Part shown: positions 15,180 through 39,207 of the stretch, piece by piece
How the letters are laid out: the number at the start of each line of letters is the position of its first letter
Position numbering within the stretch: position 1 is the stretch's first letter
IMG/VR virus record: IMGVR_UViG_3300017987_005501
Length of the DNA: 64,000 nucleotides
Source: a virus
Lineage: Duplodnaviria; Caudoviricetes
Strand: one strand, 5' to 3'
The notes under the pieces: model-generated
Told to the model about the DNA's origin: nothing
Databases searched by the model: none
The model's input: only the letters and a program-made list of their open reading frames with translations
Program-made: the position numbers and the translations under genes

Positions 15180-16415
15180 ATGGCAAAATTTAAGATTAAA
15201 AAAGAAGCATTATTAGATAACTTAAATCTAGCTTCTCTTGCGATAAATCGAAGGGAAGAAGATATTACAAGTAACTTTGTTTTTAAGGTTGAGGATGAAA
15301 AACTTGTAATTTTAGCAACTGATAATACTTCAATTGCAAAAGTAAAGGTTGGAAAAATTAGTCTAGAGGGCGATGATAATGAATCCTTTTCTTTTACCTT
15401 AAAAGCTCAAAAAGTTTTAGGGTTGTTAGGGACCTTAAAAAAGGATAACGAAGTCGAGTTTAATTTTAATAAGGCAGATATGAATGTCGTTATTAATGAA
15501 ACTTATGATTTTCCTTCTCTTGATCCAGACGATTTCCCAGAATTTAATAGTGAAATTGAAAAGGCAGAGTCTATTTCGGAAATAAAAATTGATGCATTGA
15601 GTAATGCCCTAAAATATATTAATGGGTTTATTGGGAATGACCCTCAAGGCCGTCCAGAATTAACTATTGGTTTAATTAAGGATAATACTTTCTTGGCGAG
15701 TAATGGAAAAACCTTTGGGGTATATGAATCTAAGGACCTTAAAGCAGATGGGTTTGAAGTAAGCTACAACGTTATTGGAAATATCCAGAAGTTTACTAAG
15801 GGTTTTGAAACCCCTATTGTTGTTGAGCCTAAAGATAAAAATAAGGACGACGACTCTAAGGACGACGACTCTAAGGACGACGACTCTAAGGACGACGACG
15901 GAGCGGTTGTCCCCTCTAAAAAGATAAAGCTACTGAAAAGTTCTAACTTTTTCATTATTGCTTCCCCCGACGAGTTAAACTACTATGGGTTTAGAAAGTG
16001 CGACTATAAATTCCCAGCTCAAAAGCTTCAAACGCAAATTGAGAAGGGAAAGGACGCAGAAACAAAATGCAAAATTTCTCGAGTTGAACTTTCGGAAGTC
16101 ATTAACCGTTTATCTTTCTGTATCGATGAAACAAGCAATAGGATGTCTTTTGTATTAACTGGGGATTCAGACGAGGCAGAGTTAGAAATCTCTGTTATTG
16201 GTTCCCATAAAAGGACAACTACAGAAAAAATGAAGGTCTCAAGACTTTCAGGCGAAGAGGATATTACTTTTAGCCTAAACTTTAACCACTTAACTAAAGT
16301 TTTACCCCTTTATGACAGCCCTGAAATAATCCTATCAGAAAATAAAGCTATTATGTTATCAGACGAACTTGACGACCACAATCTTTATGGGATGATTGCA
16401 GTTTTAAGGAGTTAA
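15180..16415 (+). CDS. dnaN: DNA polymerase III beta-like sliding clamp
   Basis: Size and three-domain beta-clamp pattern: KFKIKKEALLDNLN, LVILATDN, YDFPSLDPDDFP, FLASNGKTFG, ITFSLNFNHLTKVL. delta, delta' and tau genes occur in the same window. Confidence 0.8.
   Translation: MAKFKIKKEALLDNLNLASLAINRREEDITSNFVFKVEDEKLVILATDNTSIAKVKVGKISLEGDDNESFSFTLKAQKVLGLLGTLKKDNEVEFNFNKADMNVVINETYDFPSLDPDDFPEFNSEIEKAESISEIKIDALSNALKYINGFIGNDPQGRPELTIGLIKDNTFLASNGKTFGVYESKDLKADGFEVSYNVIGNIQKFTKGFETPIVVEPKDKNKDDDSKDDDSKDDDSKDDDGAVVPSKKIKLLKSSNFFIIASPDELNYYGFRKCDYKFPAQKLQTQIEKGKDAETKCKISRVELSEVINRLSFCIDETSNRMSFVLTGDSDEAELEISVIGSHKRTTTEKMKVSRLSGEEDITFSLNFNHLTKVLPLYDSPEIILSENKAIMLSDELDDHNLYGMIAVLRS
15842..15899 (+). 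repeat. Perfect 15-bp tandem repeat (about 3.8 copies) encoding KDDDS inside the clamp gene
   Basis: AAGGACGACGACTCT x3 plus AAGGACGACGAC. Confidence 0.95.
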
Positions 16416-17051
16416 ATGTTACAAACATTAACATCCCAAGCTGATGACCTAAAAATAAAGATTTCTAAAGTCGAGGGAGTAAAATCTCAATTAGTAAATC
16501 AAAGGTCAAAGCTTGATTTAGAAATAGAAACTTTAAAACAGGGGGCAGTTGTTAGAGAAAAAACTGTCTCTTTGTTTAAACAGCTTCTGGATAAGTTAAT
16601 CGACGAAAATGTAACTACCCTAAGTAAACTAGTTACGGAAGGTTTAAAAATCGTAATTCCAGACCAACAAGTTGAATTTAGTGCAACTATTGAACAGAAG
16701 AAAGACCTCTGGATTAGGTTTACTACTATAGAAAATGGGGTTGAAGGAGACGTGATTAACTCTTTTGGGGGAATGATAGTTGCTTTGGAATCATTTATTC
16801 TAAGAGTTTTGTGTATATTAAAGTTAAAATTGAAACGGATACTAATTTTGGATGAAGTATTTGCGCATGTTAGCACTGAATACCTAGAAAATACTTCATA
16901 CCTAATAAAGAAATTATGTGATGATTTTGGGATAGACCTATTATTAGTTACACATAAAAAGCAGTTATTAAAGTATGCGGATACCGTATATTATGCTAAA
17001 TCTGAGAATGAAAAAGGATTAAAAAGATTGGTTCTAGAAAAAGGAGAATGA
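16416..17051 (+). CDS. SbcC/Rad50-like ATPase, C-terminal half (signature, Walker B, H-loop)
   Basis: N-terminal coiled coil, NSFGGM signature-like motif, ILILDEVFAHVS (Walker B/D-loop), LLLVTH. No Walker A. Confidence 0.85.
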   Translation: MLQTLTSQADDLKIKISKVEGVKSQLVNQRSKLDLEIETLKQGAVVREKTVSLFKQLLDKLIDENVTTLSKLVTEGLKIVIPDQQVEFSATIEQKKDLWIRFTTIENGVEGDVINSFGGMIVALESFILRVLCILKLKLKRILILDEVFAHVSTEYLENTSYLIKKLCDDFGIDLLLVTHKKQLLKYADTVYYAKSENEKGLKRLVLEKGE

Positions 17052-17518
17052 AAATGTCAACATTTGTAGCAGTAGATATTCAAAATGTCTTTTTCCACGC
17101 GAAGAAGCTAAAGAAAAGACTTAATTTTCAGAAGCTACACGAACTATTTCAGGAAGAAGAAGATTTATTAACTTGTAATGCTTATGTTGCGACAAGCCCA
17201 TTTACCGAAACAAGTTATCTAATTAACACCTTAAAAGGAATTGGTTTTAATGTAATAGCTTGCGAACAAAAAAAGGAAAGAAAGCACTTAAAATTTAATA
17301 ATAGATCTGTTGGAATTACCCTAGACGTTGTCCGAAATCAAGAACATTTTGATAAGCTAGTCGTTGTCACAATGGATGAAGGCATTGTTGATTTGTTAGA
17401 CCACCTTAGAGACGAAGGAATTAAAGTTGAGATTTGGTCTTTAACAAATAACGAAACCCTAAAAGACCATGCGGACGAATTTAATCTTTTTGAACAGGAG
17501 CACTACGTAAAACGTTAA
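17048..17518 (+). CDS. NYN/LabA-DUF88 (PIN-like) domain protein
   Basis: FVAVDIQNVF, VGITLDVV, VVVTMDEG..DL...LRDEGIKVEI, LKDHADEF. Confidence 0.8.
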   Translation: MKMSTFVAVDIQNVFFHAKKLKKRLNFQKLHELFQEEEDLLTCNAYVATSPFTETSYLINTLKGIGFNVIACEQKKERKHLKFNNRSVGITLDVVRNQEHFDKLVVVTMDEGIVDLLDHLRDEGIKVEIWSLTNNETLKDHADEFNLFEQEHYVKR

Positions 17519-17519
17519 A

Positions 17520-18239
17520 ATGCTGGCTAAAGAAAAAATAGTTCAAAGGATAGAGAAGCTTAAATTAAAGTACCTTAAAAAATATTATAAAAAATATTTT
17601 TCGAGAATTCCCGAGAACTGTAAATATAACCACCAGCAAAAGCAATTGCGTAAAACAACTGGGGAAGTTCTAATTGACCCTGACACGTTAAAACCAATTA
17701 CTGTTGGTTTATGTATGATGGGTTGTAATAAACCGGATGATTGGAAGGGCAGCTTCTGTATGTATAAAGAAACAGCAGAAAGCTGCCCTTTCTTTACCGA
17801 TAAATACAGTAAGACCCAAATCCGAAGTAAATTTGAGGAAGAGCTACGTAACCGTAATATACGGGCCGAAAAGTATAAAGACTTACATGAGTTGTATTTA
17901 ATAATAAAACCAGGGGAAGAAGACGAAGACCTCTTTAGAGTTGATAATCTTTTATCCGAAATAGATTCGTTACAAAACGAAGAGCTAACTGATTTAAGGG
18001 AAATGATAATAGCTGAGGTCAAGGCAAGGGACTTGGAACAAAAAGTTACTCCAAATTTTGATTTCCAATCTTTTTTTAATATAATAGAAACGGACGATCT
18101 TAGGAAATTAGCTCAACTAATTATATCTAGTCTTGAAAAAAGAGACGATTCAGATATAGACCAGCACCTTCTAAATAAAGATATCTGGAAAACGGAAGAT
18201 CCCGCCGAGGAAGATTCCCTTTTTGAAAACGGACTTTAA
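17520..18239 (+). CDS. Hypothetical Cys-containing protein
   Basis: Long ORF in the operon with five spaced Cys and an acidic C-terminus ending EDSLFENGL. Confidence 0.7.
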   Translation: MLAKEKIVQRIEKLKLKYLKKYYKKYFSRIPENCKYNHQQKQLRKTTGEVLIDPDTLKPITVGLCMMGCNKPDDWKGSFCMYKETAESCPFFTDKYSKTQIRSKFEEELRNRNIRAEKYKDLHELYLIIKPGEEDEDLFRVDNLLSEIDSLQNEELTDLREMIIAEVKARDLEQKVTPNFDFQSFFNIIETDDLRKLAQLIISSLEKRDDSDIDQHLLNKDIWKTEDPAEEDSLFENGL

Positions 18240-18836: not shown

Positions 18837-19157
18837 ATGTACGGATACTACGCAACAAAAAAACCAATTAAAGAAGTAGTCCGGGAATTAGAGAAAGACT
18901 TTAAAGGCCAATATCAAATAACGGCTACGCAGGTCTATGACTGGACAATTAAACACTACCCTTATAATGCATATCTTTTAGCCCCCGAAATAATTGGTTA
19001 CTTTTGGAGGTATGTTAAAAATCATAATATCAATGTTTTAGCTTCCACCAAATCTTCCAGGATTAAGAGTAGTATAATTAATAGACTAAATAAAATTAGT
19101 AAAGTTCTGGAAAGATTAAATGAGCACGCAAGAGAAAATAAAATCATTCATCGATAA
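18837..19157 (+). CDS. Hypothetical protein
   Basis: ORF fills the gap between two genes and overlaps the primase start. Confidence 0.6.
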   Translation: MYGYYATKKPIKEVVRELEKDFKGQYQITATQVYDWTIKHYPYNAYLLAPEIIGYFWRYVKNHNINVLASTKSSRIKSSIINRLNKISKVLERLNEHARENKIIHR

Positions 19158-19824
19158 AGCCCACCGCAAGCTTCTTAGATCCCAAGAAGCATTATCCTAC
19201 TTAGAAAAGCGTGGAGTTACTAAAGAGCAAATTGAGAGATATAAATTTGGTTTCTCTTTAACCAAAAAAATGGGTATCCCCGAATTTGATAAATGGTCTT
19301 TTAATGGGGATCGGTTAAAAAATCGCCTAATTTTCCCAATTAAAAATTCTCTAGGGGATTATAAAGCTTTTGGAACAAGGCTTAATAATAAAGATTCTGG
19401 GGGATACCAGTATTTTTATTTTGATAAGATAGAAGCAACCTTCTTTGGGATGGAAAACTTAAAATCTATTTGGGAAAAAGGGTACTGTTATATAACAGAA
19501 GGTATTTTTGATCACCTAGTTTTAGAACATTTATACGATAACTGTATTTGCCCTCTTACCGCAAACTTGAAACAAGGCAGACTTAAGTTTTTAAGTAGGT
19601 TTGCGGATACAATTATTTTTGCGTTTGATGCTGACAGTACCGGTATTGAGAAAATTAAGCAAATTTCTCAAAACGAGGACTTGAACCATTTAACCTTTTA
19701 TCAATTTTCAAACTACAGAAGTGTCGGGGAAAATGTTAAAGACTTAAATAACATATGGCAGGTACTCGGGGAGAGTAAATTTAAGGATTTTATCGAAAGA
19801 CAAAATGATTTATTTGTTTTTTAG
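19120..19824 (+). CDS. dnaG: DnaG-type primase catalytic core (no zinc-binding domain)
   Basis: YLEKRGVT..QIERYKFGF, NRLIFPIKN...AFGTR, TOPRIM YITEGIFD and FAFDADSTG, KDLN. Confidence 0.85.
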   Translation: MSTQEKIKSFIDKAHRKLLRSQEALSYLEKRGVTKEQIERYKFGFSLTKKMGIPEFDKWSFNGDRLKNRLIFPIKNSLGDYKAFGTRLNNKDSGGYQYFYFDKIEATFFGMENLKSIWEKGYCYITEGIFDHLVLEHLYDNCICPLTANLKQGRLKFLSRFADTIIFAFDADSTGIEKIKQISQNEDLNHLTFYQFSNYRSVGENVKDLNNIWQVLGESKFKDFIERQNDLFVF

Positions 19825-21488: not shown

Positions 21489-22019
21489 ATGAAAGATTTA
21501 TCCAAAGCTAAATGGACCGATAGCGATAAGCGGAATTGGAAAGAAACTATCAAAAGTTTTTATAATATAGAACACGTAACTTCAATTCAAAAATATAATC
21601 CATCAGATACAATTTTCCTCACCCGTTGTTCCTCTGCCAAATCCGGAAAAGTCCGTGGGACCCCTTCCCAAATGTATTGGGGGGCTATTAATAAAAAGTT
21701 CTACCGTATGCTGGATAAGTTTGAGTTATACTACGGGGTATGTAGCGACTTTCTAGGGGTTGTTTTTAAGGACGAAGAATTTGATAACTATGATGTTCAT
21801 CCCGCCGATATTACAGACGAGGACAAGAGAAAACTTGGAGAAATAATTAGTACTAAAATAAAGGAAAAGGGCTTTAAAAATGCCTATTTCTTTAATACTA
21901 GCCCTCTTTTATCGAGGCCCTATTTTGAGATGCTATATTATTCACAAATTCCTGTAAAATATTTCTCGGATTTACAAATTGTTAGGGAAGCATTTGAAGT
22001 TGAAGATGATTTACTCTAG
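21489..22019 (+). CDS. CSxxK-motif protein (DUF6884/DUF5591-like), first gene of the deazaguanine cluster
   Basis: FLTRCSSAKS...P..MYWG...KKFY...YYGVCSDFLGVV..DEEFDNYD matches the recalled DUF6884 pattern. Ends EDDLL. Confidence 0.55.
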   Translation: MKDLSKAKWTDSDKRNWKETIKSFYNIEHVTSIQKYNPSDTIFLTRCSSAKSGKVRGTPSQMYWGAINKKFYRMLDKFELYYGVCSDFLGVVFKDEEFDNYDVHPADITDEDKRKLGEIISTKIKEKGFKNAYFFNTSPLLSRPYFEMLYYSQIPVKYFSDLQIVREAFEVEDDLL

Positions 22020-22028
22020 GAGGTAGTT

Positions 22029-23507
22029 ATGTGTTCCATTTTTGGATTTTTTAAACCGTCCGGTGCTATTGGGGACTCATTCGAAGAAAATGGCTTCAAA
22101 ATCCCCTGGAAAAGCTTATTCCATAAAATCACAGAAAATTCTAGCGAGAGAGGCAAGGATGCCTTCGGTTATGTCAAATTTGGAAGAGGCGCACCCATTG
22201 TAAATAAGTGGTCGTTGAAAAATTATTCAACACATCAAAAAGAAAATGCATACTACGGGTGGGGTGTTGACGAAGACTCGTGGGGACTTTTAGCAAATAA
22301 TAGGGCAGAACCAGAAACAGAATTCCAAAAAGATTTTCAGGAAAAGGATTTTCAACCTTTTACCAGCCCTACCCTTAGTGGAAATACTGTCCATGTTGTG
22401 CATAATGGGTTGGTAAGTAACGATGCAGAAATCCGGGAAAGATTAAAATTAAACCTTGACACGGAAACTGATTCAGCAGTTCTTCCCTATGTTTTTCGCC
22501 AAGCTACCTATTTTCAGGGATTTTTAAGGGATATTAAATACAAACTAAAAGGTAGCTATGCCCTTGCCGTATATAATACCCTAAGCCCAGACAAGCTCTT
22601 TCTCTATAGAGATTTCAACCCGTTAACTGTTCTATATAATAAACAAGAAAATGTATATATCTTTGCTTCCTTTGAAAAATACGTAAGAGAAGCTATTTCT
22701 AAATGCAAGGGAAACCAACTTAATTGGGCAACCATAGATATCCCTCCCTATTCTGGAGCTGTAATTTCTAAAAAAGGAATTGAAATAGCATCTATCGACT
22801 CCGTTGACGATTCTCAAAAGAAAGAACCGGTCCAAGAACTTTTCTTTGGAAAAAAGGCATTAATCGTAATGAGTGGGGGCCTTGATAGCGTTGTTGCTGC
22901 TATTATGATGAAAAATATGGGGTTTAAATTAGATTTCTTACATTTCTCCTACGAAGGGAGAGCACAGGAAAAAGAAATCTCTGCTGTTAAAGACCTAGCA
23001 GAACATTTTAATGCTAATCTTGAAATTTTCAAATTCGACCTATTTAAAAATTTAGGAGGAAGCAGCTTAGTTGACAGAAATATTGACTTAGCTGATGGGA
23101 AAGAGGGGGCGGAACATGCTAAAGATTGGATTCCCGCCCGAAATACTGTCTTTACCGCTATTGCCGCTGCATACGCAGATAGGTTTAAGTACGATGCCAT
23201 TGTCTTAGGATTAAATTTATCAGAGGGGATGACCTTCCCGGACAATACAACGGAATATTTTGAAACTTTCTCTAGGGTTCTCAGTCTCGGGACAATGCAA
23301 AGACCTAAAATTATTTGTCCCTTAAGTAATATGACTAAACATGAGTTAGTATTATACGGTATGAGAGAAGACCCAGATGCTATAAAACTTAGCTATAGTT
23401 GCTATACAGGAAACGATAAACACTGTGGCACATGTGCAAGCTGCTACCTTAGAAAAATTGCTTTCAAGATGAACAACTTAAACGATCCGGCTGATTTTGA
23501 GGATTAA
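22029..23507 (+). CDS. queC: Gat-QueC: class II glutamine amidotransferase fused to 7-cyano-7-deazaguanine synthase
   Basis: N-terminal MCSIFG (Ntn Cys), RGKDAFG, HNG, TDSAVL, GSYA; then MSGGLDS, HFSYEGRA..E, WIPARN, PDNT, CYTG..KHCGTCASCYLR. Confidence 0.92.
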   Translation: MCSIFGFFKPSGAIGDSFEENGFKIPWKSLFHKITENSSERGKDAFGYVKFGRGAPIVNKWSLKNYSTHQKENAYYGWGVDEDSWGLLANNRAEPETEFQKDFQEKDFQPFTSPTLSGNTVHVVHNGLVSNDAEIRERLKLNLDTETDSAVLPYVFRQATYFQGFLRDIKYKLKGSYALAVYNTLSPDKLFLYRDFNPLTVLYNKQENVYIFASFEKYVREAISKCKGNQLNWATIDIPPYSGAVISKKGIEIASIDSVDDSQKKEPVQELFFGKKALIVMSGGLDSVVAAIMMKNMGFKLDFLHFSYEGRAQEKEISAVKDLAEHFNANLEIFKFDLFKNLGGSSLVDRNIDLADGKEGAEHAKDWIPARNTVFTAIAAAYADRFKYDAIVLGLNLSEGMTFPDNTTEYFETFSRVLSLGTMQRPKIICPLSNMTKHELVLYGMREDPDAIKLSYSCYTGNDKHCGTCASCYLRKIAFKMNNLNDPADFED

Positions 23508-23510
23508 ATT

Positions 23511-24731
23511 ATGACAGAGAAGAAACCAGAAAAGAAACAAAAACAACACGGAGTTGCCGAAGATATGAATACTCCACCGGAGCTAAGCGACACGAAGAAG
23601 CATACTCTTTATAAAACTTTGGAAGTCGCAAGAGAAAAAGTCACAACGGAAATTAAAGATAAATGTGAAGGGAAGAAGAAGTTCGTTATTTGGATTGCAC
23701 AAATCGACCCCGATGCCATTGGGTCCGCTATGGTTATTAGGTACTACCTAATGGTTTGCTTAAATATCGACCCTAGTTATATCCAAATTTATTATGGTGG
23801 GGCCGTTTCCCACGCACAAAACCGGTGCATCTTTAATATTTTCGAGTTAGATAATTTATTCCAGCGAATATCTTGCGAAGAAGTGCCTCATAAGGAAGAG
23901 GAGGAAATTTGGTTTTTAGTAGATTCTAACGACCTTAATGATTCCAGGTTTTCTGGCATGGACTTATCAGATATTGATATTATTATTGATCATCATAGGA
24001 TATCTGCTAAACAAAAAACCGAGGATAAAATTTATTTTATCGATTCAATTGGGTCTGCTTCAACTTTAACAGTTGAACTCTTGGAAACAGAATGTTCTGG
24101 TTTAGAAAATTTACCTTCTGATTCCGACCGAGAGAAAGTTTTAACCCTAGCATCAATTGGAATTCGAAATGACACAAACAACTTTACGTCAGCATTAACC
24201 CATACGAGGGACACAGAAGCACTTAATAAATTAATTCCTTTTATTGATAATGATTTAACAATCCAAGTTGAAAATTACCCCCTGGATAATAACTATTTCT
24301 CTATACTATCTAATGTCCTTGAAACAAGAAAAGTTAAAGGAATTAGAGCAATCGCCTCCGCTGGCTATATTTACGAGGAGGATGGGGACCAATTAGCAGA
24401 AGCTTGTAATCTGTTAATTCGGGAAGCCCGCGTTAGCATTGCTGTTGTTTGGGGGATTATTTTAGAAACGGGAAGGGTGCGACTTAGTATTCGAAGCAAA
24501 GATGTTTCTCTAAACCTTGATTCAAAATTAAAAGAGGTTTTCGAAGGAAAAGGAGGCGCAAAACAAACTAAGGGGGTTGCAGAAGGTGGAGTACATTTAG
24601 ATATGGGAGATTTCGTACCTTCTGGGCCACTTAAGGATGATGAGACGTATAAGGAATATTGGAGAAACATTATAGAGGCAAATATTACAGGTAAAATTTC
24701 ACTTATGTTAAAAGACAGTGGAGAAGATTAA
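23511..24731 (+). CDS. DHH-family phosphoesterase (NrnA/GdpP-like, with DHHA1-like C-terminus)
   Basis: DPDAIGS, LVDSN, IIIDHH, GSAST, RNDT, RLSIRS, GGAK. Confidence 0.88.
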   Translation: MTEKKPEKKQKQHGVAEDMNTPPELSDTKKHTLYKTLEVAREKVTTEIKDKCEGKKKFVIWIAQIDPDAIGSAMVIRYYLMVCLNIDPSYIQIYYGGAVSHAQNRCIFNIFELDNLFQRISCEEVPHKEEEEIWFLVDSNDLNDSRFSGMDLSDIDIIIDHHRISAKQKTEDKIYFIDSIGSASTLTVELLETECSGLENLPSDSDREKVLTLASIGIRNDTNNFTSALTHTRDTEALNKLIPFIDNDLTIQVENYPLDNNYFSILSNVLETRKVKGIRAIASAGYIYEEDGDQLAEACNLLIREARVSIAVVWGIILETGRVRLSIRSKDVSLNLDSKLKEVFEGKGGAKQTKGVAEGGVHLDMGDFVPSGPLKDDETYKEYWRNIIEANITGKISLMLKDSGED

Positions 24732-24732
24732 A

Positions 24733-25584
24733 ATGAATTTAAGATACTATGGTTTCCAGCCCGAAATTAAAGAATACGTTGATAATACGCTCCGCCCAGG
24801 GGTGTATAAGACAGAACTTCCCTATATAATTTCATTTATTGGGGAAGCTAACGTTTCAAAAGATGGTCTTTGTGACTTAGCCGACATCCATGGAAGCGAG
24901 GCTTTTATTGAAGGAAATATGCTTCATTTTATCGCAGAGTTCCCAGATAATATTTCGCCTCACGAAATGGTTTTATATCAAAGAAGATTTATTACTATTG
25001 TAAAACAAAAAATTGAGGGCTTAGGAGATATTAAACTAACACAAGGTGGGGACGATTTATATTATAAAGGAAGGAAACTAAGCGTATCAATTGTTGCTCC
25101 TTCGACTGTCGGCACCTATCTTATGCACGCAGCATTTAATATCACAAACAAGTGTAAGCTTAACATCTCTTGGCTGGACGAATTCATAGATACGGATTAT
25201 GAATCATTAGTTAACCTATCCTTGGATTTAATGGGACAATTTAAGAATGAACTAGATTCGATAAATTATGCTGTACATAAGGTTAAACCCATTTATCCAG
25301 ATGGGCATTTCCTTAACCTAGAAAAAGCAATTGAAAACGCAAGTTTTAGAGTTTCTAATTTACAAAAGATCATCAGAGACTTATATAAGGAAGTTACCTC
25401 AACCTTGCCTTACGAAGAAAAGAAAGATAAAGCCTTGGAGCTTATTAGTCTTTTTCCCCTAAATAAAACAGAGGAATTAAAAGAAGCTTTGTCCTGTTGT
25501 AATGATGATCGCCATTTAGTCGCTTTTGCAGAAGCACTAATTATTAAGCTGCTAAGAGAATCAAAAATCGTCTCTAACTATTAA
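24733..25584 (+). CDS. DUF366-family protein (biotin/lipoate ligase-like fold) with C-terminal helical extension
   Basis: ISFIGEANV...DLADI...MLHFIAEF...YQRR...GDDLYYKGRKLSVSI...MH. GGAG RBS favours ATG 24733. Confidence 0.8.
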   Translation: MNLRYYGFQPEIKEYVDNTLRPGVYKTELPYIISFIGEANVSKDGLCDLADIHGSEAFIEGNMLHFIAEFPDNISPHEMVLYQRRFITIVKQKIEGLGDIKLTQGGDDLYYKGRKLSVSIVAPSTVGTYLMHAAFNITNKCKLNISWLDEFIDTDYESLVNLSLDLMGQFKNELDSINYAVHKVKPIYPDGHFLNLEKAIENASFRVSNLQKIIRDLYKEVTSTLPYEEKKDKALELISLFPLNKTEELKEALSCCNDDRHLVAFAEALIIKLLRESKIVSNY

Positions 25585-25598
25585 GAAGGGTAATTTAT

Positions 25599-27155
25599 AT
25601 GAGTCATTTCTTTAATATTAAGAAGAAAGATATTGGGTACAGCCGGTTTGGAGAAATTGAATGTGTACACGAAAATGTAATTACCCCTTGTTATATTCCC
25701 GTTGTACCTTTTTTAGACTCTTCGGACGATTCAATCAGGACTGAAAATATAACAAAAAGTTTTCCCAAGAAGCCGGGTTTATCCCAGGTTTTGTTGCATA
25801 ATAAAGATGGGAAGCTAAGTAAAAGCCAAAAAGAAAAGTTATCGACAAAAATTCATGAAACTCACCCACAATATGAGGGTGCTTTGTTTCTGGATAGTGG
25901 AGGGTTTAAGTTAATTAGAATGGATATTGAAGATATGCCTTTTAAGGAAGTTTTTGATATCCAGAAAGATGTTGGAGGCGACATCTTCTTCACTTTGGAT
26001 TATCCTATTATTAAGGATATGCCTTTTCCAATGCAGATTAAAAGGGCTAATAAAAGCCTGGATAACGCCATTAAAGCACTTCAATACCGTAAAGACCTTT
26101 GGGGGACTGCAACTGATAAACCTATTGTTTATGTTGCAGTGCATGGCACTTCTACGCAGTTTGTTAGGGACTATTTGGAGGAATTCTTCCGCCTCCTTAA
26201 AAAACACGATCTAGAAGATGTTCCATTTGGTTTCGCTCATGGGTCCTTGGTCCCCTTAAAGCATCGAAGGTATCTAGTATTGGATTTCCTTTACGAGACC
26301 AAAATGGTGTTGAAAGAAAAAGACATGTTAGACAAGGTCCCAATCCACGCATTTGGGATCTCGGGATCTTTAATTCCTCACCTTGGGCTATTAGGAATTG
26401 ATACCTTTGATAGTGCCTCTTATTTACTTTCGGCCGGGAACCACCAAATCTTTGATCCTGAAACATTAGAGACAATTAGTTTTATGGAAAAAGAAGATTC
26501 CGTCGAAAAAGGAAAGTATTGTAAGAGAAGAGGGATCGACCCCACGAAGTTTAAGAATCTAAAAGAAGCGTGGGGCTGTGATTGTATGTGGTGCGAGAAA
26601 GTAAAAAATGCATATCCTCCTGCGAAGGAAAATCTTGTTGATTTCGCACGAATTATCCAAAGAGTTGTGCCTCAAGAAGGGGGTTGGAGAGAGGATAAGG
26701 ATTTCTTACAATATCTAAAAGACCGAAATTTCGCATTTATGGACTATTTATATGTTCATATGATTTGTCACAACCTGACAGTCACTAATAATCTTGTTTC
26801 TAAAATGCATGAACATCTTAGGGCTGGGACATATGAAGGATTTTTCTTTGACTTCCTTAATAAAGTCCACCAAGGGAATTCTAAAAAACAAGTTAAGCAG
26901 ATAAGATTCCTCAATTCTATTTTGAAGGACCAACCAAAATTTTATGATCTAGCAGCAAAACACGTTCCCCAAATTAAAGGTAGGGAGCTACTAGAAACTA
27001 ACTCATCTCCTAAGAGACCAAAACTCGTGGACTTTAAAATGGACACTTCTGGAATCGGTTTGCACCCAGGGAAACATAAAAAAGCGGAGAAGAAAATTGC
27101 AGCAGAGAGAAGAATGAAAAAGGAGCAAACCTATTTTGAAGATGACCTTCTTTAA
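25599..27155 (+). CDS. Archaeal-type tRNA-guanine transglycosylase-like protein (arcTGT/DpdA family), no PUA domain
   Basis: SRFGEI...ITPCYIPV, DSGGF, FTLDYP, GSLVPL, IHAFG, DTFDSASY, zinc site CDCMWC...HN. Confidence 0.88.
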   Translation: MSHFFNIKKKDIGYSRFGEIECVHENVITPCYIPVVPFLDSSDDSIRTENITKSFPKKPGLSQVLLHNKDGKLSKSQKEKLSTKIHETHPQYEGALFLDSGGFKLIRMDIEDMPFKEVFDIQKDVGGDIFFTLDYPIIKDMPFPMQIKRANKSLDNAIKALQYRKDLWGTATDKPIVYVAVHGTSTQFVRDYLEEFFRLLKKHDLEDVPFGFAHGSLVPLKHRRYLVLDFLYETKMVLKEKDMLDKVPIHAFGISGSLIPHLGLLGIDTFDSASYLLSAGNHQIFDPETLETISFMEKEDSVEKGKYCKRRGIDPTKFKNLKEAWGCDCMWCEKVKNAYPPAKENLVDFARIIQRVVPQEGGWREDKDFLQYLKDRNFAFMDYLYVHMICHNLTVTNNLVSKMHEHLRAGTYEGFFFDFLNKVHQGNSKKQVKQIRFLNSILKDQPKFYDLAAKHVPQIKGRELLETNSSPKRPKLVDFKMDTSGIGLHPGKHKKAEKKIAAERRMKKEQTYFEDDLL

Positions 27156-27224
27156 AAAGGAGTTAATAGCCCAGATCATACTTAGATTATGGGCTATTTC
27201 TCTGTAATAAAAAGAAAAAGATTT

Positions 27225-28145
27225 ATGTCTACCCTAGAATTAAATACAGAACAATTTGATTTAAGAGTTCTTGAAAAACTTTTCGAAGAGGAGCCTTACC
27301 CTAATAGTGTGATCCTCGTAGGAAAAAAAGGGGTAGGAAAAAAAACTCTTGCAAAAAAGATTTGTTATCAGGTAAACAAGGAGAACCCTAAAGTCTTAAA
27401 AGGGAATTTTCCAGATTTACATTGTTATGGCCCTACCTTTAGCGGGAAAAATGTTTTCCAAAAAGCAGAGATCGAGGAAATTATTGAAAAAAGCTATATA
27501 AGGCCCATAGAAGGCCCTTATAAAGTATTTATAATGGACCAAATAACCACTTTTTCTTGGGGAGCGGGAGAAGCCTTTCTTAAAGTATTAGAGGAGCCCC
27601 CACCGAAAAATTTATATATTATGACAGCTGATTCATTATCCGGGATAATCCCTACGATTAAATCCCGTGCGATTAATATTAAGATTAAGGACTTACCTTC
27701 TCAGGAAATTATTCCAATTCTTAAAAATAGATACCCTGATAGCGATAAATTAGAAATTATTTCGAAATTATCAAATGGAAGTATTGGAACGGCGATTGAT
27801 ATTGTTAACCATAATTTATTAAGAATTCGGAATAAATTAAACGAACTATTGAAATCCCCAAATATTCTGCCTTATGATCTTATCAATACAACTCAGTGGT
27901 CTGAATTTCCAGAGGATTGGGAACAAAAAGATAAGGTTAAATTAATCCTACATTTCTTAAAAACATTTTGCGTAGACTCGCACAGGCCCTTTATTAATTC
28001 TGATTTAGAAGACATAAATATTCCTAACGTGGGAAAAATTATTAATCTAATATATCTGTTTGAGACAAAATTTCATCACGAGTATAATTTTCAAGTTCAT
28101 TTATTATCCTTTTGGATGGATCTGCATTATTTATTAAAATTATGA
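27225..28145 (+). CDS. holB: Clamp loader delta-prime-like subunit
   Basis: ILVGKKGVGKKTLA, FPDL, YKVFIMD, AFLKVLEEPP, IIPTIKSR, KLSNGSIGTA. Confidence 0.85.
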   Translation: MSTLELNTEQFDLRVLEKLFEEEPYPNSVILVGKKGVGKKTLAKKICYQVNKENPKVLKGNFPDLHCYGPTFSGKNVFQKAEIEEIIEKSYIRPIEGPYKVFIMDQITTFSWGAGEAFLKVLEEPPPKNLYIMTADSLSGIIPTIKSRAINIKIKDLPSQEIIPILKNRYPDSDKLEIISKLSNGSIGTAIDIVNHNLLRIRNKLNELLKSPNILPYDLINTTQWSEFPEDWEQKDKVKLILHFLKTFCVDSHRPFINSDLEDINIPNVGKIINLIYLFETKFHHEYNFQVHLLSFWMDLHYLLKL

Positions 28146-29137
28146 GTTATAAGACATTTGAAAAGAATTTAAAAGCATTTCGGGATAACAAAAAGAAGAG
28201 TCTTTTCGCTGTTTGTGGAGAAGAATCCTATTTTCGTGAGTTATATATTCAAGTCATTCGAAATTTATACGAAGACTTGCCCACACAGCGAATAAATGCT
28301 GAAAAAGTTTCCGAATCGGAACTTATTTCAAGTTTTGAGTCCGATGACTTGTTATCAGATACGAGTTTCCTGGAAATAACCAATATCGAAAAAATAAAAA
28401 ATTGTGAAAAAATTCTAAAAAAATTCCTGGATAGCCCTGAAGGCCTTGTTGTTTTATTCATATCCGAAAAGAATAATAAGAAAAACAAGATTTATAAGGT
28501 TTTAAGTGGCCATAAAAATGTTTTGTACCTCCCGGCAGAAAGTTTAACCCTTTATAACGATGATGTTGATTTATTTATCGATCGACTTTGCACTGTTAAA
28601 CGATTCAAAATAGAATCGAAAGCAAAGAAAATTATCAAAGAATACTATGGGGCAAACTTATACGCGATTGCGAATGAATTGGAAAAATTATTCATTTTTT
28701 GTGAAGAGAAAAAATCTATTAATCTTGAGGATACATTAAGAACGGTCACACAGTTAGAGCGTGACAACGTCTTCGAGATTGTTGATTACATTTTAAAAGC
28801 AGACCTACAGCAGGCATTAAAAAAGACAACAAGTCTTTTTAACTTTGAGTCAAACGCTGAAATGATGATTACGTATACTTTGGGAAAACATCTTGAAAAA
28901 ATAGTGGTTGTAAAATCCTTATTGAAGAAGACGGCAGACGTTGGGGAAATTGCTAAGACTCTAAACCTCTCCCCATTTATTTTAAAAAAGCAGTATATTC
29001 CAGCTGCAAAAAAATTGAAACTCAGTAAAATTCGTGAAATCATAAGGGAGTTGTCAAACTTGGACATCCAATTTAAATCAATGAGGTATTCTCATCAAGT
29101 CTTGATGGAGAATTTCTTAACTAAAATTTGTAGGTAA
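28142..29137 (+). CDS. holA: Clamp loader delta-like subunit
   Basis: LFAVCGEESYF, DLLSD, GANLYAIANELEKL, NVFEIVD, LSNLDIQFK. Confidence 0.82.
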   Translation: MSYKTFEKNLKAFRDNKKKSLFAVCGEESYFRELYIQVIRNLYEDLPTQRINAEKVSESELISSFESDDLLSDTSFLEITNIEKIKNCEKILKKFLDSPEGLVVLFISEKNNKKNKIYKVLSGHKNVLYLPAESLTLYNDDVDLFIDRLCTVKRFKIESKAKKIIKEYYGANLYAIANELEKLFIFCEEKKSINLEDTLRTVTQLERDNVFEIVDYILKADLQQALKKTTSLFNFESNAEMMITYTLGKHLEKIVVVKSLLKKTADVGEIAKTLNLSPFILKKQYIPAAKKLKLSKIREIIRELSNLDIQFKSMRYSHQVLMENFLTKICR

Positions 29138-29171: not shown

Positions 29172-32100
29172 ATGCAGACATCGACAGCAGTAATCCAGGA
29201 TTCCATATTCAGTACCCAAATGGCTTATGAAAATTGGATAAGCAAATACCGGTATAAACAAGAAAACCCAATCGATACTTTTAGAAGAGTTGCAAAAGAG
29301 TTAGCAAAAATAGAAGCTCCAGATAAAAGAGAATATTGGGAAGATAAATTTTTCCATGCAATGGTTAAAGTGGAAAACGGAATAGCAGTCGGGCTAAAAT
29401 GTACTCCTGGCGGAAGAATCACATCAAACGCAGGAGCGAAAGATAAAAATAAGGGAGGAAAAGCAACCCTTTTTAATTGTTTTATTAATGGCCCCGTAAC
29501 AAACGCAAATATTAATTATTCAAAGGATATCCAGAACGAAAAGGTAGCATTTAAACTTAAGACCTCCGATTCCCCGGATGACCTTAATAATATTTTTCTA
29601 ACTATCCTAGAGCAAGCAAAAACACTTGCATCCGAAGGTGGTTATGGAATTAATTTTGATTTTATTCGTCCTCGAGGTTCTGTTATTAAGGGAACGAAAA
29701 TTAAGCATCCTGGAGTCTTATCCTATATGAATGTTTGGGATACGGTTGCAGCGATGATTATCAAGGGGGATAACGATGGCTATGCTGATACCCTCAAAAA
29801 TTATTTAACGGAAGAAGAACAAGAACGCTGGGAAGCGGAATTTGAAAACTTAAAGAGGGCACCTCGCAAAGGTGCTATGATGGGATGTTTAACCGTATCA
29901 CACCCTGATATCGAAGAGTTTGTGCGTGCCAAACAAACTCCAGGAGTTTTGACAAAGTTTAACATCTCAGTTGTTGTAACAGATGAGTTTATGACAGCAG
30001 TTGCAGAAGACAACCTTTTCGAATTAAAATTTAATGGTAAAGTTTATAAAAGAATCAAAGCTCGCGACCTTTTTGACCTCATTATGAAAAGTACCTATAA
30101 CCGGGCAGAACCAGGGATTCTTTTCTACGATAATATGCAGAGAAATAACCCGATTAGTTACCTAGGAAAGGTTAATGCAACGAACCCGTGTTTTACTGGG
30201 GAAATGCGTCTTCATACCAACAAAGGGCTTATAACATTTAAGCAGCTGCATGAGAATGGGAAGAAAAATATCGTTGTCGTAGACGAAAGAGTTTATGACG
30301 AAGGTAAAATCGATACTGAAAATTTAGGAACTTCCTTAAAAAGGGCATCGGAAGTTGTACTAACGGAGAAAAAAGCTAAAATTTTAAGGATTACAACTTT
30401 GGATGGCCGAGAACTTAGAGTTACCCCCTACCATAGATTCCCTACCCTTACGGGATTTAAGGAAGCTAAAGACCTATCAATCAACGATCCTATTTATTTG
30501 CAATCGGAGGAGGGGCGATGGGGGAAAAAAGGATCCTTTGAGTATGGGATTTTAGTGGGGCTACTTACTGGGGATGGCACTTTCTCCCAAGACATTGATT
30601 ATAGAACTGAAAGTAATTATTCCTCGGACCGTGCAATTATTTCCTTATGGAACGAGGATACGGACACTATTAATCGGGTTCGGGGTTTCCTTAAAGTTCT
30701 GTTTAATAAGGAGTTGAAAGGAAATCTTAAAAAGAATGCTTCTATTAATGGGTATTCAAGATTTAATTTCTCCTCAAATCTTCTTTACTCAAAAATTAAA
30801 TTAGACCTGGATGAAGAAAATCCAAGACTTATTAAAGCTCGGGTTCCAGATTTCGTTTTCAAGGGAAGTCGCGAGATGATCGTGGGATACCTCCAAGGTT
30901 TATTTTATGCAGATGGTAGTGTGAATTTTAGCGATAAAAAAAGAGATTTAACACTTCGGCTTGCTCAAAGCAATAAAAAGCTTTTACAAGATGTCCAAAA
31001 TTTACTTTCTAGTTTTGGCATTAACGCAAAGCTACGAAAAGCCCGAGACGAAAACGAAACAATGCTTCCTGATGGAAGAGGGGGTTATAAGGCATATTCC
31101 TGTAAAGCTAATTATGAGCTTATTCTAAATAGGTTTAACACCATAAGGTTTAAGGAAAGAATTGGCTTATTCGGAAAAGCAAAAAATAAGAAATTAGATA
31201 ATGCTTTACAAACATTCCAAAAAAACCCATATAAAGAAAAATTTGAAACGAAAATTATTTCAATCGAAGAAGATGGGGAAGAGGACGTTTATTGCCTAAA
31301 CCAACCAGAAAACGAGTCCATTATTGTAAATGGAGTTTTAACTGGAAATTGCGGAGAGATTCCGGGAAATCCAACTATCTCAACAACTTGTTTATTAGGG
31401 AACTTAAACCTAACTGCCTATGTGAGAAAAGATAGAACATTCGATTATGAGTCTTTTAAGGAAGACGTAAAAACATTTGCTAGGTTATTGGATAATGTAA
31501 ATGATATTTCTTTTTTGCCTCTTTCAAGATATGAAAATGCTGTTAAGTCATTAAGGCAATATGGAATGGGTCTAAATGGTCTTGGTTCTGCCTTAATCAT
31601 GATGGGAATCCCCTATAATTCCCCGGAAGGAATTGCTTTTGCCGAAGAATTGGCATATCTTAAAGAAAATATTACGATGCAAACCAGTGCCTTACTCGCA
31701 AAAGAAAAAGGCGCTTTTCCTTATTATTGTGAGGATTTTCTAGATACGGATTATTTTAAGTCTGATAGGCTAACAAGCGAAACAAAGGCTTTAGTTAAAA
31801 AGTATGGAGTTAGAAACGCAAAAACAACAACGAACCCACCCAATGGAAATACTTCCATTATCTGTGATATTGTCTCAAACGGAATTGAACCTGTGTTCAT
31901 GCTTGAATACGAGCGATTTAGAATGGCGGACGACTGGCCAGAAGGATTAAATCTCGATAATGTTAAAACTTTACTGGATGAAATCAAGATTGGAGATGCT
32001 ATTGCTTGGAGAGGAAAATATAAAGGATCTGAATATTATTTCGAGCCCCAAAATAGAGGTCTTTGTATTGTAGAACCAGTCCGAGACTATGGGTATCAGT

Positions 32101-32924
32101 GGGTTCTAGATAATTATCCAGACGACAAAAAGAAAAAGTACCTAGTAACAACAGAAAAATTAAAGGTTGAAGATCATATTAGTATGCAAGCTGCCGTTCA
32201 ATATTATTGTAACCAGTCAATCTCAAAAACAATTAACCTTCCGAACGACTATAAATTTGAAAATTTTAAGAAAGTTTACGTTAAAGGTTGGGAGGCTGGA
32301 TTATTGGGAGTTACAACCTATAGAGCGGGTACGATGGAAGCTGTTATCAAGGAAAAAGACAAGAAAGAAGAAGAAAAGGTTATGTGGGATAGTGTAAAAC
32401 TTCCCAAGAAATTCCTAAATGGGGCAACACACGTAATTAAACGTGAAGGAATGAAATTTTATATTCATTTTTCTTTCCTCCCTGCGGATGTTGAGAATAA
32501 AAAACCTGTTGCAATCTGGATTAACTCTAACCATAAACCAAAACACGAGTCGGCACAAACAAGAAAGATGATTAGTATTATCGCAGATTTATGTAAGGAA
32601 AAGGGAGTAAATCCAGATATTGTTGATCAGTACATGGAAAAAATTATGAAAAATGATTTACATGTGCGTCTTGCTAAAATCGCGTCTCTTGCTTTAAGAC
32701 ATAACGTAACTCCTAAGGAGATTGTCGAAACATCTAGAGATATCCCTAACTTAGACGTAACAACTTTAGTTTATGCCGTAAGAAAATTCCTTAGCGCACA
32801 TATTAAAAATGGAACTCCAGTCCAAGATAAGGTTTGCGAAAATAAAAAATGTAAATCAACAAACCTTATTTATGAGAGTGGCTGTATTAAATGTCTAGAT
32901 TGTGGAACTTCCGGTTGCGATTAA
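29172..32924 (+). CDS. nrdJ: Class II (B12-dependent) ribonucleotide reductase with intein and C-terminal zinc ribbon
   Basis: TPGGRITSNAG, NCF, GGYGINFDFIRPRG, RKGAMM, HPDIEEF, FNISV, AEPGILF, ATNP|intein|CGE, CLLGNLNL, GMGLNGL, PNGNTS, SISKTIN, TTYRAGT; C-terminal YESGCIKCLDCG. Confidence 0.93.
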   Translation: MQTSTAVIQDSIFSTQMAYENWISKYRYKQENPIDTFRRVAKELAKIEAPDKREYWEDKFFHAMVKVENGIAVGLKCTPGGRITSNAGAKDKNKGGKATLFNCFINGPVTNANINYSKDIQNEKVAFKLKTSDSPDDLNNIFLTILEQAKTLASEGGYGINFDFIRPRGSVIKGTKIKHPGVLSYMNVWDTVAAMIIKGDNDGYADTLKNYLTEEEQERWEAEFENLKRAPRKGAMMGCLTVSHPDIEEFVRAKQTPGVLTKFNISVVVTDEFMTAVAEDNLFELKFNGKVYKRIKARDLFDLIMKSTYNRAEPGILFYDNMQRNNPISYLGKVNATNPCFTGEMRLHTNKGLITFKQLHENGKKNIVVVDERVYDEGKIDTENLGTSLKRASEVVLTEKKAKILRITTLDGRELRVTPYHRFPTLTGFKEAKDLSINDPIYLQSEEGRWGKKGSFEYGILVGLLTGDGTFSQDIDYRTESNYSSDRAIISLWNEDTDTINRVRGFLKVLFNKELKGNLKKNASINGYSRFNFSSNLLYSKIKLDLDEENPRLIKARVPDFVFKGSREMIVGYLQGLFYADGSVNFSDKKRDLTLRLAQSNKKLLQDVQNLLSSFGINAKLRKARDENETMLPDGRGGYKAYSCKANYELILNRFNTIRFKERIGLFGKAKNKKLDNALQTFQKNPYKEKFETKIISIEEDGEEDVYCLNQPENESIIVNGVLTGNCGEIPGNPTISTTCLLGNLNLTAYVRKDRTFDYESFKEDVKTFARLLDNVNDISFLPLSRYENAVKSLRQYGMGLNGLGSALIMMGIPYNSPEGIAFAEELAYLKENITMQTSALLAKEKGAFPYYCEDFLDTDYFKSDRLTSETKALVKKYGVRNAKTTTNPPNGNTSIICDIVSNGIEPVFMLEYERFRMADDWPEGLNLDNVKTLLDEIKIGDAIAWRGKYKGSEYYFEPQNRGLCIVEPVRDYGYQWVLDNYPDDKKKKYLVTTEKLKVEDHISMQAAVQYYCNQSISKTINLPNDYKFENFKKVYVKGWEAGLLGVTTYRAGTMEAVIKEKDKKEEEKVMWDSVKLPKKFLNGATHVIKREGMKFYIHFSFLPADVENKKPVAIWINSNHKPKHESAQTRKMISIIADLCKEKGVNPDIVDQYMEKIMKNDLHVRLAKIASLALRHNVTPKEIVETSRDIPNLDVTTLVYAVRKFLSAHIKNGTPVQDKVCENKKCKSTNLIYESGCIKCLDCGTSGCD
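30189..31349 (+). mobile_element. Intein with LAGLIDADG endonuclease in NrdJ (387 aa)
   Basis: Starts CFTGEM after TNP and ends LTGN before the catalytic Cys (CGE). VTPYHRF, GLLTGDG, YLQGLFYADGSV, VYCL. Confidence 0.92.
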
Positions 32925-32974: not shown

Positions 32975-33032
32975 GCCTTTTTAAAAGTAATTTGAATTCC
33001 TCCTATTGTATTATTATAGAAAAGGGGGAAAA

Positions 33033-38104: not shown

Positions 38105-38353
38105 ATGGGAGAAATTCCACTTTTTGGCAAACAAAATGTTAGAATAATTAAATTGGGAGACTTTGAAGTTGCCCTTCCAGAAAACGACTCGGCGTCTTTC
38201 CTGGTATTATTGATATCCTTAATCGAGCTCAATGACCCAAAAGTCAATAATGTTTTACTTAAGTGTGGTGTTTCCTTTAGCGACATTAAGGGAAAACAAT
38301 ATTTCCCAAGGGACGATACCAAATTACCGGAGGAGATAAATGGCAGCAATTAA
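38105..38353 (+). CDS. Hypothetical protein
   Basis: GGGGG RBS; overlaps the next gene. Confidence 0.55.
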   Translation: MGEIPLFGKQNVRIIKLGDFEVALPENDSASFLVLLISLIELNDPKVNNVLLKCGVSFSDIKGKQYFPRDDTKLPEEINGSN

Positions 38354-39200: not shown

Positions 39201-39207
39201 AGGAAAA

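Follow-up and report, generated by a model that had tools for sequence, protein, structure and literature searches.

Our analysis of a 64,000-nucleotide stretch of DNA from a virus of the Caudoviricetes (IMG/VR virus record IMGVR_UViG_3300017987_005501; the whole stretch is called the window below) points to a module of co-oriented genes at positions 21,489 to 27,155 that we read as a Dpd-like system for the post-replicative modification of DNA with 7-deazaguanines, probably tethered to the sliding clamp. We consider this the probable reading, while leaving it appreciable room for doubt. Five tightly packed open reading frames (ORFs) on the plus strand, with spacings of 9, 3, about 1 and 14 nt, encode a protein with a CSxxK motif (the CSxxK protein), a glutamine amidotransferase-QueC fusion (Gat-QueC), a DHH-family protein, a DUF366 protein and a transglycosylase of the TGT family; a first-pass annotation, made from the sequence without database searches, had described these genes by their motifs, and the ORFs, Pfam matches and translations confirm that description. 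Four features of this module are new: its TGT belongs to a lineage other than DpdA1-4, the DpdC/ArcS-like partner is divergent, DUF366 is present in a phage module, and there is a candidate replisome tether. The final base may be the amide dADG (2'-deoxy-7-amido-7-deazaguanosine), the amidine 2'-deoxyarchaeosine (dG+) or a new derivative or adduct. 7-Deazaguanines in phage DNA guard against restriction enzymes and Cas9, and they are also relevant to the design of phage therapy and to sequencing.

An arcTGT-like transglycosylase

The transglycosylase carries the motifs LDSGGF, LDYP, GSLVPL, DTFDSASY and CDCMWC...HN in its translation, and the catalytic aspartates (LDSGGF, LDYP, DTFDS), the CxCxxC...HN zinc site and GS..L are invariant throughout its clade. 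The sole solved relative found by phmmer was the archaeal tRNA transglycosylase (arcTGT) of P. horikoshii (1IQ8; E 4e-12), and alignment with this enzyme showed that the equivalents of Asp95, Asp249 and the CxCxxC...H zinc site are kept. A profile of the clade scored 113 bits against arcTGT, about 44 bits against the eukaryotic and bacterial QTRT proteins, 21 bits against Cap10 (9NTN) and 16 bits against a bacterial DpdA (7UI4), and the arcTGT equivalog TIGR00432 gave 66.7 bits, below its cut-off of 350, with a match over only positions 1-264 of its 441. The Pfam TGT match stops at residue 339 and the last 180 residues form a linker and a tail, in which Pfam found no PUA, C1, C2 or other domain. 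Judged by these scores the enzyme is neither a member of the DpdA family nor a true arcTGT, and is far closer to arcTGT than to DpdA or Cap10.

No match to the transglycosylase was found by tblastn in 50,697 GenBank phage records (E limit 1e-3), in IMG/VR, among the PHROGs or with the PADLOC models for DpdA and Cap10, and we therefore place it outside DpdA1-4 and bDpdA. The earlier description of an arcTGT-like enzyme with an intact zinc site and no PUA, rather than a divergent DpdA, is upheld by the profile scores (113 against 16 bits) and by the missing PADLOC and GenBank-phage matches. The closest cellular relatives are bacterial fusions of 600-660 residues (cyanobacteria, Chloroflexi, Poribacteria) that join a catalytically intact, arcTGT-like TGT domain to DUF5591 and have no PUA; they stand isolated in ordinary chromosomal surroundings (loci L005 and L007), one of them adjoining GmrSD and HEPN genes, and a profile search showed that their DUF5591 part also matches 2Q07.

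As would be expected of a DpdA-like enzyme, a TGT fold with its catalytic aspartates stands beside Gat-QueC and DUF366 in three phages. From this context we propose that the enzyme is a DNA-guanine transglycosylase and a functional analogue of DpdA. If this is true, an arcTGT-derived lineage joins the DpdA subfamilies that are used as a signature of such systems, and searches keyed to DpdA miss modules of this kind.

The CSxxK protein and its relation to DpdC and ArcS

An exhaustive profile search recovered 139 cluster representatives of the CSxxK family, mostly stand-alone proteins of about 165-175 residues. Among 64 family members C47-x3-K51 (CSSAK in the window protein) is invariant or nearly so, and S86-D87-x2-G90 (ILSDxYG) is nearly invariant. 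The Pfam curators give CxxxK and LSAxxG as the signature motifs of DUF6884, for which DNA binding and base flipping have been proposed (PMC11701544), and DpdC has been assigned to DUF6884 (PMC12235509). In Salmonella, DpdC converts preQ0-DNA to ADG-DNA, the amide, in vitro and independently of DpdA and DpdB (PMC10164549). More distant members of the CSxxK family found by HMMER exceed the DUF6884 cut-off (44, 43, 34 and 31 bits) while the window protein falls below it, which is why we take the latter for a divergent branch and not for core DUF6884.

The first-pass annotation had likened this protein to the cysteine-containing domain of archaeosine synthase (ArcS), and at the level of the superfamily this likeness holds. 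Comparison of the 64-sequence alignment with DUF5591 by hhalign gave a probability of 88.7% (E 2.6e-6, 111 columns), with the Cys-x3-Lys, SD/SG-x-YG and YD blocks in register, and the best PDB match to the AlphaFold2 (AF2) model (predicted local distance difference test, pLDDT, 95) was AF0587/2Q07, a C-terminal fragment of ArcS (Foldseek rank 1, E 2e-3; VIA Z 8.8, root-mean-square deviation 3.1 Å over 112 residues, the next row having Z 5.9). Run with three CSxxK sequences only, hhalign against DUF5591 was not significant (probability 1.5%), and the CSxxK profile gave only chance-level matches against PDB sequences. The protein is thus ArcS-like at superfamily level with a closer address in DpdC/DUF6884, and it is better named a divergent member of the DUF6884/DpdC family.

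Natural fusions of the CSxxK domain with a TGT (P0235, the C-terminal domain of which is 35% identical to the window protein; E 2e-30) and with an MT-A70 methyltransferase (P0275) tie the family to the modification of nucleic-acid bases. In a further protein (P0353) a CSxxK/DUF6884-like domain is joined to a YaaA domain and HEAT repeats. The tblastn search of the GenBank phage records and the IMG/VR scan gave no match to the CSxxK protein, and a metagenome scan with a narrower CSxxK alignment gave two loci only. A stand-alone DUF5591 protein of a phage, ArcS2, together with DpdA2 gives dG+ in DNA (PMC10516641). By analogy with these enzymes the CSxxK protein is predicted to modify the nitrile of preQ0 that is already in DNA, and DNA-bound preQ0 is the favoured substrate because the characterised member of its family, DpdC, acts on DNA. 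Should this reading hold, the CSxxK family would join DpdC (DUF6884) and the ArcS core (DUF5591) in a single nitrile-activating superfamily.

C-terminal tails and the sliding clamp

A pattern scan of the window ORFs of at least 50 residues found acidic xDL[LF]-type ends only in the CSxxK protein and the transglycosylase, both of which end in EDDLL. The three closest homologues of the transglycosylase end in EEIDLF, EELDLL and EEVDLI, and the CSxxK homologues of related phages have QEIDLFE and EEEDLI at the tail position. An [LMF][FL] end occurs in 26 of the 83 full-length representatives of the CSxxK family against 1 of 250 background proteins (p ~4e-21; per-position frequency 0.8%), many of these ends being QNTLF, QTSLF, QGNLF, KSLF or QKSLL, and the TGT::CSxxK fusion terminates in LDKLFG. 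Such a tail is characteristic of the CSxxK family. The primase of the window, too, has an end that looks like a QxDLF clamp motif (QNDLFVF).

Tails of this kind are also present on transglycosylases of other phages. An independent phage contig (L098, 5157-13923) encodes QueE-FolE-QueC, a GIY-YIG endonuclease, a CSxxK homologue, an S-adenosylmethionine (SAM) methyltransferase, three tandem DpdA proteins (phrog_887) and a beta clamp; the methyltransferase ends in QKSLF and the DpdA paralogues in QNRLF, QTKLF and KLRLL, and the beta-clamp gene follows directly. In the Nonagvirus FritzHoffmann, an Escherichia phage (MZ501068.1; L100:10068-12022), the annotated DpdA ends in RLQDLFDE and directly precedes a gene annotated as 'DNA polymerase beta subunit', which is followed by DNA polymerase. 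By its terminal residues, a clamp-motif-like tail is thus also carried by a characterised DpdA1-type lineage.

The bacterial clamp-binding consensus is QL[SD]LF. Since the ends resemble this consensus, and since DnaN-type clamps are encoded by both the window phage and L098 (Pfam), we propose the tails of the transglycosylase and the CSxxK protein as candidate docking peptides for the clamp. Among the papers searched, none connects DpdA with the sliding clamp other than by mentioning both in passing. A wider idea, which we advance tentatively and hold less likely than not, is that phages tether their base modifiers (at least two unrelated TGT lineages, DpdC/ArcS-like finishers and methyltransferases) to the clamp by such tails, so that 7-deazaguanine replacement would be co-replicative, and that in the window module an arcTGT-derived enzyme has in addition been recruited to DNA, where with DUF366 and the CSxxK protein it would make a derivative so far undescribed in DNA. 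If the main reading holds, the shared tails would suggest how modification becomes efficient in some phages, by coupling to the replisome.

Gat-QueC and DUF366

Gat-QueC matches Pfam QueC (181 bits) and GATase_6/7, phrog_10428 over residues 1-488 (E 8e-78) and the QueC equivalog TIGR00364 (150.7 against a cut-off of 150.3 bits), and, aligned over 100% of its length, shares 31% identity with the Gat-QueC that Nonagvirus/Queuovirinae and Vibrio phages encode (annotated 'dPreQ0 and archaeosine synthase'). It contains MCSIFG (Cys2), the SGGLDS PP-loop and a C-terminal cysteine cluster (C..C..C..C). Its predicted product, going by these motifs and matches, is preQ0, possibly the amidine. Phages with homologous Gat-QueC have been published as having dPreQ0 or dG+ in their DNA (PMC10516641).

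The DUF366 protein (PF04017, 101 bits against a cut-off of 29.9; motifs GDDLY...KLSVSI) keeps all the residues that are invariant in the family (Y, G, D, E, Q, GDD, K, VSI, H, E and K), and the phage copies have in addition a helical C-terminal extension of about 95 residues that is specific to them. The AF2 model (pLDDT 91) matched 2DDZ (PH0223) in Foldseek (TM 0.8, E 8e-12) and then biotin and lipoate protein ligases (E ~1e-6), so that the modelled fold is biotin/lipoate-ligase-like, in agreement with the ligase fold assigned to it from the sequence at the outset. No match to DUF366 was found by tblastn in the GenBank phage records, and a literature search found no publication naming DUF366 or PF04017 and no published function for the family.

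In cellular genomes DUF366 is closely linked to preQ0 synthesis. Genes of the que pathway lie beside DUF366 in 81 of 81 loci (80 Firmicutes loci, of one broad lineage, obtained by scanning GTDB species genomes, and one from a metagenome contig), and 66 of these have the full row queD-queC-DUF366-queE-folE. Of the 24 DUF366 genes in 251 evenly sampled Bacillota genomes, 19 are adjacent to QueC, and the linkage recurs in metagenome-assembled genomes (MAGs) of an Actinomycetota (queC-DUF366-queE) and a Chloroflexia (queD-DUF366); the family is also present in two methanogen control genomes. The first-pass annotation had put DUF366 among extra enzymes that may decorate preQ0 or G+; it is to be corrected in that DUF366 is a conserved member of cellular preQ0 operons and not a phage-specific decoration. 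In two loci (L012 and L095) the row queC-DUF366-queE, with queD ahead of queC in L012, is preceded by the same PHP, radical-SAM/TRAM, phosphoribosyltransferase (PRTase), BFN-domain and HGD-D-like genes. In the Bacillota sample the QueC copies adjoining DUF366 score 130-193 bits on the QueC model, most other copies scoring about 200-290.

Judging from its fold, DUF366 may activate a carboxylate at the expense of ATP, and we propose 7-carboxy-7-deazaguanine (CDG), the substrate of QueC, as its target because it is the obvious carboxylate of the pathway. Replacement of QueF by DUF366 was considered as another role. Within the same 251 Bacillota genomes, in which DUF366 occurs in 24, QueC in 68 and QueA, nearly universal, in 245, QueF is present in 1 of the 22 genomes with both DUF366 and QueC and in 29 of the 46 that have QueC and no DUF366 (Fisher p 3e-6, a contrast that is confounded with lineage). 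Given this confounding, the 17 QueC-positive genomes with neither protein and a fold with no obvious site for a redox cofactor, we treat QueF replacement as a lead only. With the family in the preQ0 operons of three bacterial phyla, a phage copy beside a transglycosylase would open the part it plays in this well-studied pathway to direct testing.

Conservation of the module and the DHH protein

The order CSxxK - Gat-QueC - X - DUF366 - TGT, where X is a variable slot, is kept in two related phage contigs (L001 and L096), whose transglycosylases are 61-62% identical to that of the window, and because of this recurrence the arrangement is not due to chance. DUF366 adjoins the transglycosylase in all three phages. 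The first-pass annotation had made its proposal depend on the DUF366 and CSxxK genes accompanying QueC and TGT in related phages; both do so in L001 and L096, and the CSxxK gene also in L098. Glycosyltransferases and an S1-domain protein adjoin the main transglycosylase in L001 and L096. L001 further encodes, at 16329-18127, a second, shorter TGT paralogue (424 residues) which has all the catalytic motifs and no tail, and after it a 175-residue protein that contains a GGAAWAD motif and matches no family.

Slot X is occupied by the DHH protein in the window, by DUF4031 and a SAM-methyltransferase-like protein in L001 and by a 163-residue protein of unknown family in L096. The closest homologue of the DHH protein examined elsewhere (47% identical) is encoded on a contig of 619 kb, where its neighbours are RecR, HNH and Metallophos genes and que genes are absent. 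The protein has the DHH and DxD motifs and no Pfam match to DHHA1; its distant homologues are named nanoRNase/pAp phosphatase and do have DHHA1. Because the slot varies among the relatives and the homologue occurs elsewhere without que genes, we regard the other four genes as the probable core of the module and the DHH protein as a probable passenger, either an NrnA/RecJ-like phosphoesterase or an unrelated nuclease; it is probably not the pathway accessory it had earlier been cast as. In the replication and nucleotide-metabolism block of the window there is a PAPS-type sulfotransferase gene (33006-33851; Sulfotransfer_1, 66 bits), and its by-product, pAp, is a classical substrate of NrnA-type DHH enzymes. 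A role of the DHH protein as a pyrophosphatase of the pathway or as a pAp phosphatase is not favoured, as the modules of the relatives lack it and the homologue is not near que genes.

Proposed pathway

In the pathway that we propose, Gat-QueC would build preQ0 with glutamine as the nitrogen source, supplied by the QueD-like enzyme whose gene lies shortly before the window start, together with FolE and QueE from elsewhere in the 283-kb genome or from the host. DUF366 would act at or beside the QueC step, our best guess being ATP-dependent activation of the CDG carboxylate or hand-over of the base. The arcTGT-like enzyme would then exchange guanine for preQ0 in fresh phage DNA, the role of DpdA, after which the cysteine of the CxxxK motif in the CSxxK protein would attack the nitrile of the DNA-bound preQ0 to give dADG, the amide that DpdC makes, or dG+, the amidine that phage ArcS2 makes, or else an adduct with an amino acid. 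Docking of the transglycosylase and the CSxxK protein on the phage beta clamp through their xDL[LF] tails would make modification trail the replication fork. Because the module has a DpdC/ArcS-like enzyme as well as the Gat domain, there is scope for a new base.

Alternative explanations

Several observations weigh against the DNA-modification reading. The closest characterised relative of the transglycosylase, arcTGT, is a tRNA enzyme, and the TGT+DUF5591 fusions that are its closest cellular kin may act on tRNA. The CSxxK protein scores 21.1 bits on DUF6884 (PF21818), under the 30-bit gathering threshold, and does not have the full ArcS motif PC-x3-KPY-x2-S-x2-H, of which only C-x3-K is retained (RCSSAKSGK). 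The xDL[LF] tails fit QL[SD]LF in part, with EDDLL, EIDLF, ELDLL and EVDLI matching its last three positions only, while the fuller QxxLF ends are found in the CSxxK homologues and in the DpdA-type enzymes of other phages; a complex prediction of the clamp (411 residues) with residues 474-518 of the transglycosylase scored 0.24 against a mark of 0.34, which we list on this side although it is no evidence either way. Gat-QueC and the DpdC/ArcS-like enzyme may be partly redundant, as they appear to be, and for this reason the order of steps proposed above may be wrong. The data show the gene content, the family assignments with their catalytic motifs and folds, the synteny, the fusions and the enrichment of the tails; we infer that DNA is the substrate, and likewise the step order, the binding to the clamp, what DUF366 does chemically and which base results, and that the substrate is reached in this way counts on this side too.

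Some of these points would fit a module that acts on tRNA, in which the arcTGT-like enzyme places preQ0 in the tRNA of phage or host, to be completed to archaeosine by Gat-QueC and the CSxxK protein, an archaeal-type modification imported by a giant phage. The best solved relative of the transglycosylase and the ordinary chromosomal contexts of its ArcS-like fusion kin are in line with such a role; however, the enzyme lacks the PUA domain and the C1-C2 tRNA-binding region, its arcTGT equivalog score is 67 against a cut-off of 350, and the CSxxK protein groups with DpdC/DUF6884, whose characterised member acts on DNA. A fusion of CSxxK to MT-A70, a family of DNA methylases, also exists, the module is embedded in a replication block, and it shares clamp-motif-like tails with genuine DpdA-type enzymes of other phages, including one from a lineage whose DNA contains dG+. 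Every phage Gat-QueC system studied to date modifies DNA (PMC10516641), and we judge a tRNA target, the main rival, unlikely.

Entry of the base before replication is a much poorer prospect. Here the base would be made into a nucleotide by a PRTase-like protein and phosphoribosyl pyrophosphate (PRPP) synthetase, the DHH protein would trim phosphates or clear dGTP, the polymerase would incorporate the product and the transglycosylase would have another role. A weak PRTase-like ORF (39208-39720, 19 bits) does lie beside a PRPP synthetase gene (39698-40657) 12 kb downstream, and the DHH and ribonucleotide reductase genes adjoin the module, but the PRTase match is under threshold, related phages have no DHH gene in the module, and the transglycosylase is catalytically intact, conserved and beside DUF366 in all relatives. 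All known 7-deazaguanine DNA modifications have been concluded to be post-replicative and to proceed through a transglycosylase (PMC10516641).

QueC-like/TGT-like pairs occur in type IV CBASS and Qat systems. A pair of this sort could have a signalling nucleotide or a protein for its target, like the deazaguanylating Cap9/Cap10 of type IV CBASS or like Qat, and serve the phage in counter-defence or regulation; the first-pass annotation had raised this together with protein modification, and neither the QatC, the Cap10 nor the PADLOC tests bore it out. The similarity to QatC is weak and confined to the PP-loop (26.5 bits in PADLOC, 30 against a cut-off of 280 in NCBIfam), the Cap10 score is 21 bits where arcTGT reaches 113, the transglycosylase has no PADLOC match and Gat-QueC exceeds the cut-off of the true QueC equivalog. 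No CD-NTase, effector or QatABD genes lie nearby, the neighbours being replication genes, and we give this explanation hardly any credence. The reading we keep is that of a DNA modification system of the Dpd type.

Genomic setting

The module lies amid replication genes, with a primase/NucS-like block upstream of it and the genes for clamp-loader delta' and delta, followed by an intein-bearing ribonucleotide reductase, downstream (Table 1).

Table 1. Positions of the module genes, their candidate clamp-docking tails and neighbouring replication genes in the window
Feature	Position	Strand	Assignment or evidence
CSxxK protein, 176 aa	21489..22019	+	divergent DUF6884/DpdC-family; remote ArcS C1 core (DUF5591) homologue
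EDDLL C-terminal tail of CSxxK protein, candidate beta-clamp docking peptide	22002..22016	+	pattern scan
Gat-QueC, 492 aa, class II glutamine amidotransferase + QueC fusion	22029..23507	+	Pfam, phrog_10428, TIGR00364
DHH-family phosphoesterase, 406 aa, NrnA/RecJ-like	23511..24731	+	Pfam DHH 39 bits; IIIDHHR
DUF366 protein, 283 aa from ATG	24733..25584 (alternative GTG start 24718 = 288 aa)	+	Pfam DUF366
arcTGT-like base-exchange transglycosylase, 518 aa	25599..27155	+	Pfam TGT 63 bits
EDDLL C-terminal tail of transglycosylase, candidate beta-clamp docking peptide	27138..27152	+	pattern scan
Beta sliding clamp, bacterial-type DnaN-like, 411 aa, proposed partner of both tails	15180..16415	+	Pfam DNA_pol3_beta, N-terminal 48.6 bits, C-terminal 23.5 bits
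Clamp-loader delta' + delta, directly downstream of transglycosylase	27189..29137	+	DNA_pol3_delta2 82 bits, DNA_pol3_delta_C 61 bits
Primase (Toprim), upstream of module, C-terminus QNDLFVF	19120..19824	+	Pfam and PHROG primase matches

The first-pass annotation had reported folE, queD and queE as missing from the window. For folE and queE this stands, as precomputed Pfam matches over window positions 1-59 kb and the close flanks showed neither; for queD it needs a supplement, since a bimodular T-fold protein of 327 residues (L010:1649-2632, minus strand) is encoded 0.3-1.3 kb before the window start, and its second half is QueD-like (PTPS 45 bits, CQRLFHGH motif). This is the sole other gene of the preQ0 pathway detected near the operon. 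There are no tRNA genes within the window, a promoter and terminator scan of the region gave nothing above chance, and blastn of the region against the GenBank phages gave no match.

The stretch is present in sediment and seawater metagenomes from several studies, and the transglycosylase occurs on two contigs, one of 283 kb and a JGI contig of 88.8 kb, the source being an uncultured giant phage. RecA (7045-9687) and the large subunit of ribonucleotide reductase (29172-32924) each contain an intein bearing a LAGLIDADG endonuclease domain. At 38340-40657 a 286-residue ORF with no family match is followed by the weak PRTase-like ORF and the PRPP synthetase.

Comparison with known systems

The proposed module follows the same logic as the DpdA-DpdB-DpdC arm of the Salmonella Montevideo Dpd system (PMC10164549), in which a TGT-fold enzyme inserts preQ0 and a DUF6884-family enzyme then converts the nitrile on DNA, and the motifs of the DpdC family, CxxxK and the LSxxxG type, are retained in the CSxxK protein. 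In contrast to that system, the module has a transglycosylase that is no DpdA (113 bits to arcTGT, only 16 to 7UI4), there is neither a DpdB ATPase nor the restriction genes dpdD-K, and Gat-QueC, DUF366 and the C-terminal tails are added.

Among phages, the Queuovirinae (9g, Nonagvirus) encode FolE-QueD-QueE-Gat-QueC-DpdA1 and the Vibrio phage nt-1 encodes DpdA2 with ArcS2 (PMC10516641). The module shares with these a full-length homologue of Gat-QueC (31% identical), a stand-alone ArcS-core-like enzyme alongside the transglycosylase, as in nt-1, and a position beside clamp and polymerase genes; the tail of the Nonagvirus DpdA, too, is of the xQDLF type. It differs in that its transglycosylase belongs to none of DpdA1-4 and in its DUF366, which is in no described phage system.

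With the archaeal archaeosine pathway (arcTGT and ArcS) the module has in common the catalytic aspartates and zinc site of the transglycosylase, for which arcTGT is the best template in both sequence and structure, and a CSxxK fold resembling that of AF0587 (Z 8.8), and Gat-QueC, which serves as an alternative archaeosine enzyme in Crenarchaeota, is present in the module as well. Unlike the archaeal enzymes, the transglycosylase has no PUA or C1-C2 region and the CSxxK protein only the Cys-x3-Lys of the ArcS motif, and the module is set in a replication block, carries clamp-motif-like tails and has DNA as its likely substrate. Finally, the phage DUF366 shares its fold (PH0223, 2DDZ), its invariant residues and its linkage to QueC with the cellular proteins of the queD-queC-DUF366-queE-folE operons, whereas the phage copies have the helical extension of about 95 residues and adjoin the transglycosylase instead of lying between queC and queE.

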